A stretch of 64,000 bases of DNA from Escherichia coli (GTDB lineage: Bacteria; Pseudomonadota; Gammaproteobacteria; Enterobacterales; Enterobacteriaceae). Location: the NCBI RefSeq assembly GCF_003334255.1, contig NZ_QOWU01000018.1. The stretch is one strand, 5' to 3'. Numbering within the stretch: the first letter of the stretch is position 1; each line of letters opens with the position of its first letter. Under the pieces are notes generated by a model. That model was not told where the DNA came from. It saw only the letters and a program-made list of their open reading frames with translations, and did not search any database. Made by a program: the position numbers and the translations under genes. This document shows, piece by piece, positions 16,922 to 48,010 of the stretch.

Positions 16922-16952
16922 TAACTCAAGTCCGGCGGGTCGCTGCCGATAA
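16922..16952 (+). promoter_or_regulatory. putative sigma-28 class 3 promoter for flgKL
   Basis: GCCGATAA -10-like element at 16945..16952; the -35 match is weak. Confidence 0.35.
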
Positions 16953-18640: not shown

Positions 18641-19594
18641 ATGCGTTTCAGTACACAGATGATGTACCAGCAAAACATGCGTGGTATCACCAATTCTCAG
18701 GCAGAATGGATGAAGTACGGCGAACAGATGTCGACGGGTAAGCGAGTCGTTAACCCTTCTGACGATCCCATTGCTGCATCACAAGCCGTAGTTCTCTCCC
18801 AGGCACAGGCGCAAAACAGCCAGTACACGCTGGCGCGTACTTTCGCCACTCAAAAAGTGTCACTGGAAGAGAGTGTACTTAGCCAGGTCACCACTGCTAT
18901 CCAGAATGCTCAGGAAAAAATTGTCTACGCCAGCAATGGCACCTTGAGTGACGATGACCGGGCCTCGCTGGCTACGGATATTCAGGGGCTTCGTGACCAG
19001 TTGCTGAATCTGGCAAACACCACTGACGGTAACGGGCGCTACATTTTTGCCGGTTATAAAACAGAGACTGCGCCGTTTAGCGAAGAGAAAGGGAAATACG
19101 TCGGTGGAGCAGAAAGTATTAAACAACAGGTCGATGCTTCGCGTTCGATGGTGATAGGGCACACGGGTGACAAAATTTTCGACAGTATTACCAGCAACGC
19201 GGTAGCGGAACCAGACGGTAGCGCTTCTGAAACCAATCTTTTTGCCATGCTGGATAGTGCCATCGCAGCCCTGAAAACGCCGGTCGCGGATAGCGAAGCG
19301 GATAAAGAAACCGCCGCTGCGGCGTTAGATAAAACCAACCGCGGACTGAAAAACTCGCTGAACAATGTGCTGACTGTTCGCGCGGAATTAGGCACGCAGC
19401 TGAACGAACTGGAGTCGCTGGATTCATTAGGTAGCGATCGCGCTTTAGGGCAAACGCAGCAGATGAGCGATCTGGTTGATGTGGACTGGAATGCAACTAT
19501 TTCATCTTACATCATGCAGCAAACGGCATTGCAGGCATCGTATAAAGCATTTACCGATATGCAGGGATTGTCGCTCTTCCAGCTCAGCAAATAA
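18641..19594 (+). CDS. flgL: flagellar hook-filament junction protein FlgL (HAP3)
   Basis: 317-aa ORF matching FlgL. Confidence 0.96.
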   Translation: MRFSTQMMYQQNMRGITNSQAEWMKYGEQMSTGKRVVNPSDDPIAASQAVVLSQAQAQNSQYTLARTFATQKVSLEESVLSQVTTAIQNAQEKIVYASNGTLSDDDRASLATDIQGLRDQLLNLANTTDGNGRYIFAGYKTETAPFSEEKGKYVGGAESIKQQVDASRSMVIGHTGDKIFDSITSNAVAEPDGSASETNLFAMLDSAIAALKTPVADSEADKETAAAALDKTNRGLKNSLNNVLTVRAELGTQLNELESLDSLGSDRALGQTQQMSDLVDVDWNATISSYIMQQTALQASYKAFTDMQGLSLFQLSK

Positions 19595-19671
19595 TTTCGC
19601 TTTAAAACATATCATGAAACTGGGTATGTTTTGTCTGCCTGCTCTGGGATCGCTGGGGCGGGCATTTTTTT
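19595..19671 (+). ncRNA. flgL 3' UTR with intrinsic terminator; candidate 3'UTR-derived sRNA (FlgO-like)
   Basis: GC-rich hairpin about 19636..19664 followed by a T7 run; 3'UTR sRNAs of flagellar operons are reported for E. coli, but the identity here is recalled, not verified. Confidence 0.35.
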
Positions 19672-19741
19672 GCCTATTTTGCATTGTTGGTTAGCAAGGA
19701 TGCCATTCGATGAATTTTAATATGTTGATTCAAAGATGAAA

Positions 19742-19768
19742 TAAAAAAGCCCTGGCAGTTACCAGGGC
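19742..19768 (-). terminator. intrinsic terminator of rne
   Basis: GCCCTGGCAGTTACCAGGGC hairpin followed on the minus strand by a T6 run, just downstream of the rne stop. Confidence 0.8.
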
Positions 19769-19789
19769 TTGATTACTTTGAGCTAATTA

Positions 19790-22700
19790 TTACTCAACAG
19801 GTTGCGGACGCGCAGGAGCGGCAGAGGCATGATGTGTTGCCGTATGACCACCTGCGGCACCTTTACCTTCGAAGGCAAAAGTAGGGCGCTGCCAGTCACT
19901 GTGACGCGGTGCCTCCGGAACATATTCCGGTGCTGGAGCGCGCGTCATTGGCGCGGTAGCGTGGTTATGCTCAACGGTGACCTCAGGTTCGACCGCAGCT
20001 ACCGTTTCAACTTCTGCTGCGACTTCAGCGACTACTGGCGCGGCAGGTTGAGCAACAACTTCAGGTTCAGCAACTACAACCTCAGCAGTTTCGACAACTT
20101 CTTCAATATCTGCCGTCTCTTCCTGCGGTTCAACCACCGGTTCTGCTTGTTCTGCAACTTCCTGGGCTACGGCAACATCAGACTCGGTAATCACCTGCGG
20201 CTGTTCAGTTACCGCGGCAGCGATCACTTCAGGATGCGTCGTTTCAACCACTTCCGGTTGCGGTTCGGCAACCTGAACGGGGGCTTCTACGACACCGGCC
20301 ACTTCTTCAACAACTGGCGCGCTAACAACCGGTTCGATAGCGGCGGCGACAGGGACCTCAGTCACCATCGGCTGCACATGTACTTCTTCCTGTTCGCGCT
20401 GCTCTTCAACCTGTACATCTTGCGGACGTACAATTGGATAGCGGATCCAGACTTTGCCAGAGGCCAGTTCCGGAGACGCGCACGCTACGGTCAACGGCAT
20501 TGGCGACTGGGTTGGATAACGCTCGTCACGATAGCGACGACGACGCTGACCACTTACGCGCAGGTGACGAGGCGAGCGGCGAGAACGACGCGGCATGCCA
20601 CCGTTGTCACGGTTATCAGCATTGTTCTCTTCTTGCTGTTCTGGTGCAGTTTGCGCTACGACTGGCAGCGGGACTTTCACCAGTTCTGTGCGTGGAGCTG
20701 GCGCTTCCTGAACAATTGGTTCGGCAGCGACAGTTTCTTCAACCACCGGTGCGACTACCGCTTCTTCGGCTACGCTTTGCTCGTAACGCACTTTCTGATT
20801 GAGCTGACGCTGTTTACGACGCGGCTGAACCGGACGTACACGTTCTTCCTGTTCGGTTTCCTGAACAGATTGCTCTTCAACATTCAGCGCCTTCGCTTCT
20901 TGTTGCGCCTGACGTTTATCATCATTACGGCGGCGGCTACGTTCACGACGCGGCGCTTGCTGCTCGTCGGCGGTACGCGCTTTTTCCGTTACCTCAGCCT
21001 GCTGACGGCTCTCACGCGTCTCGGCAGTCTGCTGCTGTGCCTGGCGACGATTACGACGGTTTTCTTCGCGATTATCGCTGCCTTCAGTACGTTCACTACG
21101 GGTGTCGCGGCGCTCATTACGGTCACGGCGGTTGTTCTGACGAGGCTTGCGACGATCCTGTTGACGTTCCGGTTTCGCTTCTGCTTTCGGTGCTGGTTGC
21201 TCGGTCGGTTTGGTTTCTTCACCACCGCTGAACAGCGCTTTCAGTGCGCCGAAGAAGCGGCTCAACAGCCCAGGTTGTGCAGGAGCTGCTGGTGTTGCCG
21301 GTGCAGCTTTCGGTGCTGGAGCTACAACAGGCGCGGCAGGTTCAGCTGGCGTTGGCGCAGGCGGCACATCCGGCATGGCAAAGGTTGCCAGCGCAGGTTG
21401 TTCCGGACGCTTACGTTCAGCGAACTCTTCTTCAGACGGCAGCGCCATCGCTTCTTCATGCAGCTTCGGCAGCATGTAGCTTAAGGTTGGGGTTTCTTCC
21501 CCTTTACGCACGCGCAGCACGTGGTAGTGCGGGGTTTCCATCTGATCGTTTGGCACAATTACACAGCGCACACCGTCCTGACGAGTTTCAATGGCATTTA
21601 CCGCAGAACGTTTTTCATTCAGCAGGTAAGAAGCGATTGGCACAGGAACAATGGCGTGAACTTCCTGGGTGTTCTCTTTCAGCGCTTCTTCTTCGATCAG
21701 ACGCAGAATAGAGAGCGACAGCGATTCGTTGTCACGCACGGTGCCAGTACCAGAACAACGCGGACAAACGTGATGACTGGATTCACCCAGTGATGGGCTC
21801 AGGCGCTGACGGGACATTTCCAGCAGGCCAAAGCGAGAAATATGGCTGATTTGAATACGCGCACGGTCCTGACGCACCGCTTCACGCAGACGGTTTTCTA
21901 CCGCACGCTGGTGGCGTACTGGCGTCATGTCGATGAAGTCGATAACAATCAGGCCGCCGAGGTCACGCAGGCGCAGCTGACGAGCAATCTCATCGGCAGC
22001 TTCGAGGTTAGTGTTAAACGCGGTTTCTTCGATATCGCCGCCGCGGGTCGCGCGTGCGGAGTTGATGTCGATGGCCGTTAACGCTTCGGTGCTGTCGATA
22101 ACAATGGAACCACCAGACGGCAGACGAACTTCACGCTGGAAGGCGGACTCGATCTGTGACTCGATCTGGTAGTGGCTGAACAGCGGGATCTCGCCGGTGT
22201 ACAGTTTGATTTTGCTGCTGAAATCCGGGCGACCTAATGCAGCGATATGCTGACGTGCCAGTTCGAGCACTTTCGGGTTATCGATAAGGATTTCGCCGAT
22301 GTCCTGACGTAAGTAATCGCGGAATGCGCGAACGATTACGTTGCTCTCCTGATGAATCAGGAACGGGGCCGGGCGGCTTTCAGCGGCTTTTTTGATGGCT
22401 TCCCAGTGTTTCAGACGGAAGCTTAAATCCCATTGCAGCGCCTCAGCAGATTTGCCGACGCCAGCGGTGCGCACGATAAGCCCCATGCCTTCCGGCAGTT
22501 CAAGGCTTGCCAGTGCTTCTTTTAATTCGGTACGGTCGTCGCCTTCGATACGGCGAGAAATGCCACCCGCGCGCGGGTTGTTCGGCATCAGAACCAGATA
22601 GCTACCCGCCAGACTGATAAAGGTGGTTAATGCCGCGCCTTTGTTGCCGCGCTCTTCTTTATCGATCTGAACAATGACTTCCTGACCTTCACGCAACACA

Positions 22701-22975
22701 TCTTTAATGTTGGGACGACCATGAGCACTGTAGTTAGCAGGGAAATATTCGCGGGCAATTTCTTTTAGTGGGAGGAAACCGTGACGTTCAGCGCCGTAAT
22801 CAACAAAAGCAGCTTCCAGACTCGGTTCAATGCGGGTGATTTTACCTTTGTAGATGTTTGCCTTTTTCTGCTCGTGCCCTGGACTTTCGATATCCAGGTC
22901 ATACAGACGCTGCCCATCTACAAGGGCAACGCGCAACTCTTCCTGCTGAGTTGCGTTGATTAACATTCTTTTCAT
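19790..22975 (-). CDS. rne: ribonuclease E
   Basis: 1061-aa ORF; N-terminal catalytic domain ([30 protein letters not shown]) and Arg/Pro/Glu-rich low-complexity C-terminal scaffold. Confidence 0.98.
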
Positions 22976-23336
22976 CGTAACTTACTCATTATTCTTACAT
23001 TGACGACTAAGCTGCGGGCAAAGTAACGCCTTTCCGGGTGTGAACCGATGGCCTCGTGTCTAGTCGCGTCGCCAACCTCACGGTTATCGTCAGCTCAAAG
23101 AGGCGCAGAGTGTCGGTTGCCCGTTTTTCATGCGGAAAAACAGCGCAATTATCAAAGAAACAGACTGGGTATTACTCTCCAGAAATATTTCCATCTACCG
23201 GTAAGGACTGCAACCCGCAGCCCGCTAACTGCCTGAAAGATCAATACGTCTTACGCCATTGCTGCGTGGATGATCGGTCGGGCAAAATGGGTTATTCCGT
23301 AAAATTTCTTGTTTTAACAAGGATGGACACGGAAAC
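22976..23336 (-). promoter_or_regulatory. rne long 5' UTR (autoregulatory leader)
   Basis: The 572-bp rne-rluC intergenic region matches the known long rne leader; extent taken from established knowledge, not resolved from sequence. Confidence 0.55.
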
Positions 23337-24618: not shown

Positions 24619-25203
24619 CTATCCCATCAGCGGGTTTTTCCCTTCCCGACGTAACATCTGACACAGCGCGATTAGCGGTAAACCAACCAGCGTGTTAGGA
24701 TCACGCCCCTCTAAACGCTCAAACAGCGTAATGCCAAATCCTTCACTCTTAAAGCTACCCGCGCAGTGCAGGGGATGCTCTTTACGCACGTAATTATCAA
24801 TCTCCGCCTCGCTCAGGTGACGGAAATGGACGTCAAAAGGCTCCACTTCTGTTTGCAGATGCCCATTCGCCGAATTAAACAACGCCAGTCCAGTATAGAA
24901 GGTGACGATATTGCCGCTGGCTTTGCGTAATTGCAGACGGGCATTTTCTTCCGTTAACGGTTTACCGGTGATTTCGCCATCAAGAACACATACCTGGTCT
25001 GAACCAATAATTAAATGATCCGGATAACGTGACGCCAGAGATTGCGCTTTTTCTTGTGCCAGTCGAAGCACCAACTGTCGCGGTGATTCGTCGCTGCGTG
25101 GGGTTTCGTCGACCTCTGGTGCTGCACATTCAAAAGAGATTTGCAGTTTTTCCAGAAGAGCGCGACGCCATGGCGAGGTGGAGGCTAAAATAAGTTTAGG
25201 CAT
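24619..25203 (-). CDS. yceF: Maf-like nucleotide pyrophosphatase YceF
   Basis: ORF-track frame trimmed to [20 protein letters not shown]; 194 aa. Confidence 0.92.
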
Positions 25204-25389
25204 ATTTTTTTCCATCAGATATAGCGTATTGATGATAGCCATTTTAAACTATGCGCTTCGTTTTGCAGGTTGATGTTTGTTATCAGCACTGAACGAAAAT
25301 AAAGCAGTAACCCGCAATGTGTGCGAATTATTGGCAAAAGGCAACCACAGGCTGCCTTTTTCTTTGACTCTATGACGTTACAAAGTTAA

Positions 25390-47680: not shown

Positions 47681-47938
47681 ATGAAAAACGTAAAAACCCT
47701 CATCGCTGCGGCGATTTTAAGCTCCATGTCATTTGCCAGCTTTGCGGCTGTCGAAGTTCAGTCAACGCCAGAAGGCCAACAAAAAGTCGGTACAATCAGT
47801 GCTAACGCGGGGACAAATCTGGGATCGCTGGAAGAGCAGCTGGCGCAAAAAGCGGATGAGATGGGCGCAAAATCTTTCCGTATTACTTCTGTAACCGGTC
47901 CGAATACCCTCCATGGAACAGCAGTAATTTATAAATAA
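47681..47938 (+). CDS. bhsA: multiple stress resistance outer-membrane protein BhsA (YcfR/ComC)
   Basis: 85-aa ORF with signal peptide, YdgH/BhsA family. Confidence 0.93.
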   Translation: MKNVKTLIAAAILSSMSFASFAAVEVQSTPEGQQKVGTISANAGTNLGSLEEQLAQKADEMGAKSFRITSVTGPNTLHGTAVIYK

Positions 47939-47977
47939 GCATTAACCCTCATTAATGCCTGCTACTGCTGATTTTTT

Positions 47978-48010
47978 CCCCGCGACATGCCGTGTCGCGG
48001 GGATTTTTTT
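47978..48010. terminator. bidirectional intrinsic terminator between bhsA and ldtC
   Basis: CCCCGCGACATGCCGTGTCGCGGGG hairpin flanked by T-runs on both strands. Confidence 0.85.

Follow-up and report, generated by a model that had tools for sequence, protein, structure and literature searches.

Genomic context of flgL and rne

The window, meaning the whole 64,000 nt stretch of E. coli DNA analysed here (contig NZ_QOWU01000018.1 of assembly GCF_003334255.1), includes the late flagellar genes flgK and flgL and, converging on them, rne. The features that frame the region downstream of flgL, together with the promoter upstream of flgK, are as follows.

16926..16952, + strand: sigma-28 (FliA) type flgKL promoter, TCAAGTCC-N11-GCCGATAA (motif search, sequence read)
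18641..19594, + strand: flgL coding sequence, the parent mRNA of FlgO (open reading frame list and translation; flgL in RefSeq; stop codon TAA at 19592-19594)
19770..19747, − strand: rne terminator hairpin, followed by a T-rich tract (terminator scan)
19790..22975, − strand: rne open reading frame, converging on flgL (open reading frame list)

The original prediction described a segment after the flgL stop codon ending in a GC-rich hairpin and a run of seven T residues, and the terminator scan placed exactly these elements there, with the stem at 19636..19664 and TTTTTTT at 19665..19671. It had also been right to treat the rne terminator as a separate element, the hairpin of which (19770..19747) is on the opposite strand, 76 bp past 19671.

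A search of the window with the pattern TNAAGTNN-N11-GCCGATAA returned 16926..16952 as its sole match, with 0 expected in shuffled sequence. The flgK ATG (16986) follows 34 nt downstream of this motif, which has a perfect −10 element and is likely to be the transcriptional source of the RNA described below. The sigma-28 −10 octamer GCCGATAA taken by itself occurred at 10 sites in the window versus 2.1 expected, and only two of these had a plausible −35 element at 11 nt: the flgK site (16926-16952) and a site at 8780-8806 on the − strand, found upstream of a 97-aa open reading frame (8443-8736, −) and with a −35 element, TAAAGATT, that matches at 7/8 positions. This second site presumably serves as the promoter of flgM, and the other eight sites look like chance occurrences or coding sequence.

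The flgL 3′ UTR carries the small RNA FlgO

We are highly confident that positions 19594..19671 (+) correspond to FlgO, a known Hfq-binding small RNA (sRNA) that is excised from the flgKL mRNA at its 3′ end. The curated E. coli K-12 MG1655 record (NC_000913.3) annotates a 78 nt ncRNA, flgO (b4826, 'small RNA FlgO'), at 1140986..1141063, which equals 19594..19671 of the window (window position = genome position − 1121392), and window positions 19400-19900 are 100 % identical to MG1655 and to many further strains. The FlgO coordinates given in Table 2 of PMC8175672 are identical to those of the annotation. The RNA extends from A19594, the final base of the flgL stop codon, through the U7 run. 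PGAP-annotated records carry only flgL and rne at this locus; the ncRNA is present in the curated record. Three published reagents could also be placed on the window.

19594..19616, + strand: cloning primer SM041 (pZE-FlgO), 5′P-ATTTCGCTTTAAAACATATCATG (Melamed et al. 2023, eLife, PMC10578931)
19622..19649, − strand: northern probe SM032 (Melamed et al. 2023, PMC10578931)
19690..19712, − strand: reverse cloning primer SM042 (Melamed et al. 2023, PMC10578931)

The assignment to FlgO follows from the annotation, the published coordinates and the reagents of PMC10578931 all falling on this interval. Sequence, coordinates, strand and position after flgL are all equal to those of the K-12 RNA (b4826; Melamed et al. 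2023, eLife 12:RP87151), and no difference was found. The proposal of a 3′ UTR-derived sRNA at flgL is thus borne out by the flgO annotation (b4826), by the published coordinates, and by the primers and probe mapping inside it; the published flgL sRNA whose existence had been suspected does exist, and comparison with its sequence and coordinates identifies it as FlgO. The predicted interval of 19595-19671 was correct at its 3′ end and one base short at its 5′ end, the annotated RNA beginning at 19594 and measuring 78 nt, not 77. FlgO is already named and annotated in E. coli, and the scan of this window is therefore the rediscovery of an annotated gene, not a discovery.

No Rfam 15 family matched FlgO, either over 19000-20500 at the E-value threshold or over the whole window at the gathering threshold, and we take it from the latter that Rfam is without a FlgO family. 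The best Rfam 15 match over 19597-19671 was anti-hemB, whose 13.6 bits fall short of the threshold of 49.5. At gathering level, the scan of the whole window returned only three matches, all known elements: rne5 (the RNase E 5′ UTR) at 23000-23336 (−), SraB at 25197-25365 (+) and the PyrC leader at 1216-1265 (−).

FlgO folds into two hairpins

The interval 19595-19671 folds into two hairpins with a minimum free energy (MFE) of −28.5 kcal/mol, compared with −15.5 ± 2.8 kcal/mol for dinucleotide shuffles (z = −4.69; 0/200 as good). The parts of the molecule are listed below.

19594..19671, + strand: FlgO sRNA (b4826), 78 nt (annotation, primers and probe; 75.7 bits with covariance model R1, described below)
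19594..19602, + strand: single-stranded 5′ tail AUUUCGCUU, unpaired with a probability of about 0.9 and conserved at 0.36 bits per column, starting at the presumed RNase E cut UA/AUU (the slash marks the cut)
19603..19633, + strand: hairpin 1, in which 19603-19613 pair with 19623-19633 (11 bp) around the 9-nt loop AUGAAACUG (19614-19622); present in both the MFE and the centroid structure
19636..19664, + strand: terminator hairpin of 12 pairs (7 G-C) with a 5-nt loop, the outer 9 pairs being common across genera (terminator scan)
19665..19671, + strand: U7 tail, the 3′ end of FlgO (T7 run)

The 3′ portion satisfies the criteria for a rho-independent terminator, namely a GC-rich stem-loop with a U tract directly after it, and a U-rich linker separates the terminator hairpin from hairpin 1. 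A terminator hairpin, a U tail and a U-rich linker make up the usual layout of Hfq-binding sRNAs, and from general knowledge of such RNAs the U7 tail would be expected to bind the proximal face of Hfq. The loop of hairpin 1 has a computed probability of about 0.9 of being unpaired; in this model it is accessible and could pair.

The structure and one loop are conserved across enterobacterial genera

Exactly one copy of the 78 nt FlgO sequence was present in each of the 5426 complete E. coli genomes (5426/5426, at least 90 % identity), and the element was located directly after flgL in approximately 65 enterobacterial species. A scan of species-representative genomes for FlgL yielded 69 loci, from which an alignment (A1) was made of the 61 distinct sequences that contained the two-hairpin element. 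The genera with the element include Escherichia, Citrobacter, Kluyvera, Atlantibacter, Cedecea and Kosakonia, as well as Leclercia, Lelliottia, Trabulsiella, Franconibacter, Silvania and Pluralibacter. Across the 61 species, 91 % of alignment cells at paired positions were paired and compensatory changes occurred in 15 of 21 pairs, with 0/500 shuffles reaching either value; in a control where the 3′ partners were slid by 1-3 columns, pairing was 30-51 %. Both helices contributed, hairpin 1 with compensatory changes in 9/11 pairs and the terminator hairpin with such changes in 6/10 counted pairs (92 % of cells paired), and RNAalifold independently predicted the same two helices. A covariance model made from the 61-species alignment (R1) found the element right after flgL, at 68-90 bits, in held-out Salmonella enterica, S. 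bongori, E. fergusonii and Buttiauxella. The same arrangement after flgL, on the same strand and with an intrinsic terminator, was thus seen in the 61 aligned species and five held-out loci. There was no R1 match after flgL in Pseudocitrobacter (three loci: L018, L020 and L021) or Hafnia (L060 and L061), in which the 3′ UTRs are unrelated and form other hairpins; FlgO is therefore limited to some Enterobacteriaceae, or has been replaced in these lineages.

Conservation was unevenly distributed along the molecule. Information content per column was lowest in the 5′ tail (0.36 bits), followed by the terminator loop (0.87), the hairpin-1 stems (approximately 1.3) and the hairpin-1 loop (1.45), and reached 2.0 in the U tail, which is invariant across species. 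Within the hairpin-1 loop, GAAAC was present in 54/61 species and GAAACTGG in 47/61. Given these counts and the bits per column, the conserved single-stranded element is the hairpin-1 loop and not the 5′ end; the loop core GAAACUGG is strongly conserved in at least 20 enterobacterial genera, whereas the 5′ tail is not. The loop was also retained in the held-out Salmonella, E. fergusonii and Buttiauxella sequences, the Salmonella loop ACGAAACUG being one base apart from the E. coli loop AUGAAACUG. The alignment indicates that the target of selection is the sequence of the hairpin-1 loop, not a 5′ seed. The terminator loop of Salmonella is wholly different from that of E. coli, and it is E. coli that is the outlier; this probably explains the remark in PMC10578931 that one loop differs in Salmonella.

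Several further observations concern the surroundings and distribution of the locus. The spacer between the FlgO and rne terminators (19672-19746) is variable: at least 80 % of 19400-19900 was recovered in one piece in only 4735/5426 E. coli genomes, with FlgO itself present in all, and in two Escherichia lineages (L004 and L005) the sequence past the U tract is unrelated. In S. bongori (L076, 1639-2154) the gene that converges on flgL-FlgO encodes an MFS transporter and is not rne, hence the conservation of FlgO is independent of the rne neighbourhood. In Intestinirhabdus alba (L024:3454-3592) the flgL stop codon is separated from FlgO by approximately 60 extra bases, among them a GC-rich inverted repeat (GGCCGCCCGGC.../...GCGGCGGGATAACGCCGCC); its FlgO is intact and gave the top R1 score (80 bits) among ten sources searched together. 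A 280-nt contig labelled Arthrobacter agilis (L070; coverage 0.31), with matches of 100 % to FlgO and 97 % to the end of flgL, almost certainly represents contamination. A contig labelled Chryseobacterium sp. 18061 (L039), which bears an enterobacterial flgL-FlgO locus, is probably mislabelled or contaminated. Lastly, the single flgL-FlgO copy was on a plasmid-labelled record in 5/5426 E. coli assemblies, and these five records are probably mis-assigned replicons.

Biogenesis and expression of FlgO

In the proposed pathway, the flgKL transcript would begin at the sigma-28 promoter upstream of flgK; read-through from upstream flg genes is possible in the flagellar regulon and may contribute to this transcript. 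Transcription would stop at the intrinsic terminator (19636-19671), and an endonuclease, most likely RNase E, would cleave at the flgL stop codon (UA/AUUU) to free a 78-nt RNA with a 5′ monophosphate. RNase E prefers a U at +2, two bases after the cut, a preference that the UA/AUU context at 19593/19594 fits.

Published data describe an RNA of this kind. On northern blots FlgO appeared as a doublet of approximately 75 nt, was lost or lowered in a fliA (sigma-28) mutant and peaked late, together with FliX; it was sensitive to a 5′-phosphate-dependent exonuclease, indicating processing (PMC10578931). An independent Hfq-CLASH study likewise reported the flgL 3′ UTR as TEX-sensitive, as represented in RIL-seq data and as present in Salmonella RNase E TIER-seq data (PMC7213987). 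The Salmonella data set and the UA/AUU context together suggest RNase E as the nuclease that releases FlgO in E. coli. A CLASH chimera from the same study has a FlgO part ending in ...GGGCATTTTTTT, which confirms the 3′ end. FlgO was also strongly co-immunoprecipitated with Hfq, ranking fourth among Hfq-enriched sRNAs, and its overexpression left flagella number and motility unchanged (PMC10578931). Its set of RIL-seq partners was the smallest of those of the four sigma-28 sRNAs and varied by condition, with only gatC recovered in four conditions, and the authors raised the possibility that FlgO works otherwise than as a conventional base-pairing sRNA, perhaps by titrating Hfq or by recruiting proteins (PMC10578931).

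We consider it very improbable that FlgO is instead transcribed independently, from a sigma-70-like promoter (TTGTCG-16-AATAAT, 19568-19595) inside the end of flgL. The promoter scan does list this site, with 9/12 positions matched, but one site in the 1.5-kb region compares with 0.9 ± 0.8 by chance, the start it predicts is downstream of the mapped FlgO 5′ end, and the published loss of the RNA in a fliA mutant and its sensitivity to 5′-monophosphate exonuclease (PMC10578931, PMC7213987) also speak against it.

Complementarity of the hairpin-1 loop to RIL-seq partners

Complementarity to FlgO was assessed in 16 partner regions taken from the window and from NC_000913.3. Whole-molecule RNAduplex predictions of FlgO against ptsG and gatC were dropped because the predicted pairings were unrealistically long and contained large interior loops, and fragment-wise duplexes were used. 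The hypothesis under consideration was that FlgO is a canonical base-pairing sRNA whose seed is the hairpin-1 loop (AUGAAACUGGG), pairing inside coding sequences. Several results were in its favour. The top RIL-seq partner, gatC, contains CCCGGUUUCAU, an 11-bp match to AUGAAACUGGG (−16.4 kcal/mol), and 8- to 9-nt Watson-Crick matches were found on the sense strands of msrB (CCCAGUUUC), ptsH (CCCAGUUU), flgA (ACCCAGUUUCG) and also gatA. The antisense strands of the targets were without the loop-core 8-mers CCAGTTTC and CCCAGTTT and held one match for ACCCAGTT, and the loop, unpaired with a probability of about 0.9, is the best-conserved single-stranded part of the molecule.

These matches did not amount to a significant enrichment. 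For the gatC match, the probability of a chance occurrence per gene is approximately 0.18, and a resampling null over all FlgO 8-mers gave a family-wise P = 0.15; P was 0.066 for the loop region fixed beforehand and 0.27 when G-U pairs were allowed. The 8-mer CCCAGTTT had a nominal Poisson P of 7e-4, but was picked post hoc. The flgA and msrB sites are Escherichia-specific, whereas the loop is conserved far more widely: at the position of the flgA site the sequence is unrelated in Salmonella, C. koseri, Buttiauxella and Pluralibacter, and the msrB site, CCC AGU UUC, reads CCG/CCU AGC UUY in Salmonella, C. freundii, Buttiauxella and non-flagellate Klebsiella, so that the duplex is broken at its centre. 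Complementarity was also lacking in the ptsG 5′ UTR, which is inside the window and where fragment-wise duplexes gave nothing above background, and in the antisense RIL-seq partner of rrlG/rrlH (rrlG.AS), which had no notable complementarity to FlgO. Pairing of the loop in cis within flgKL found no counterpart either, as no CCAGTTTC was conserved on the flgKL strand across at least 70 loci.

We therefore regard a canonical loop-seeded sRNA as unlikely, the hypothesis of the loop as a seed not being supported by these comparisons. As far as sequence comparison goes, gatC, msrB, ptsH and flgA do not explain the conservation of the loop, in agreement with the suspicion voiced by the authors of PMC10578931.

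Candidate functions of FlgO

Any function of FlgO in trans is one that we infer. We judge the chances to be even that FlgO has a trans-acting role on Hfq during late flagellar assembly, with the conserved hairpin-1 loop as its specific recognition surface. We put forward only tentatively that the loop GAAACUGG is a recognition element for a conserved partner, either an Hfq-recruited protein or a single conserved RNA, with FlgO serving, at a late stage of flagellar assembly, as a decoy or adaptor timed by sigma-28 and not as a seed-pairing sRNA.

It is conceivable, if doubtful, that FlgO is mainly a stable by-product or cis element, whereby the terminator and a protective hairpin upstream of it both define and stabilize the flgKL mRNA 3′ end and the resulting fragment binds Hfq through its U tail and regulates nothing in trans. 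The published absence of an overexpression phenotype and a partner set that is smaller and less reproducible than those of the other three sigma-28 sRNAs (PMC10578931) are consistent with this, as are the loop-complementary sites, which are neither enriched nor, for flgA and msrB, conserved; R1 moreover matches another terminator-type 3′ UTR RNA, BhsB, on generic features. A protective hairpin, on the other hand, needs a stem and not a given loop, yet GAAAC is kept in 54/61 species while the stem covaries freely, and the rank of FlgO as fourth among Hfq-enriched sRNAs (PMC10578931) also argues against a by-product. There is next to no likelihood that the segment encodes a small protein starting at the AUG in the loop (19614). 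That ATG is in frame with an open reading frame running to 19694, but the RNA ends at 19671 without having reached a stop codon; other species have UUG, CUG or ACG in place of the AUG, which sits within the hairpin loop and has no Shine-Dalgarno sequence.

A role as a CsrA decoy acting through GGA was considered and rejected. The terminator loop of E. coli contains GGA, as does hairpin 1 in some genera, but the C. amalonaticus-group sequences lack it at both places, and it is therefore not a conserved feature.

The unusual pattern of conservation, in which the 5′ tail varies and a hairpin loop is kept, narrows where the function of FlgO must reside. The 61-species covarying alignment (A1, model R1) could in addition seed an Rfam family for FlgO.

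Comparison with other small RNAs

FlgO has membership of the sigma-28 regulon, Hfq binding and an origin in a UTR in common with FliX, UhpU and MotR, and, like FliX, is processed from the 3′ UTR of a late flagellar mRNA (PMC10578931). FliX, UhpU and MotR have defined targets (fliC, the S10 operon and lrhA) and motility phenotypes, whereas FlgO has neither (PMC10578931). No sequence relationship was found between FlgO and these three RNAs, and within the window R1 detected only FlgO and, weakly, BhsB. The latter (b4832, annotated in NC_000913.3 as ncRNA bhsB after bhsA) occupies 47911-48010 (+) of the window, and its R1 match of 31 bits, at 47942-48010, adjoins an 85-aa open reading frame (47681-47938; bhsA). 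Like FlgO, BhsB is an annotated 3′ UTR sRNA; the match is confined to its U-rich stretch, GC-rich terminator and U7 tail and does not include hairpin 1 of FlgO or the loop of that hairpin. The similarity between the two is one of generic terminator architecture and not of homology.

The processed type II 3′ UTR sRNAs CpxQ, SdhX, MalH and GadF resemble FlgO in using the terminator of the parent mRNA, in their 5′-monophosphate end, in RNase E-type release and in their association with Hfq. The conserved seed of these RNAs is usually in the single-stranded 5′ part. FlgO is unlike them in that its 5′ tail is the least conserved part of the molecule and its conserved single-stranded element is the loop of a hairpin.
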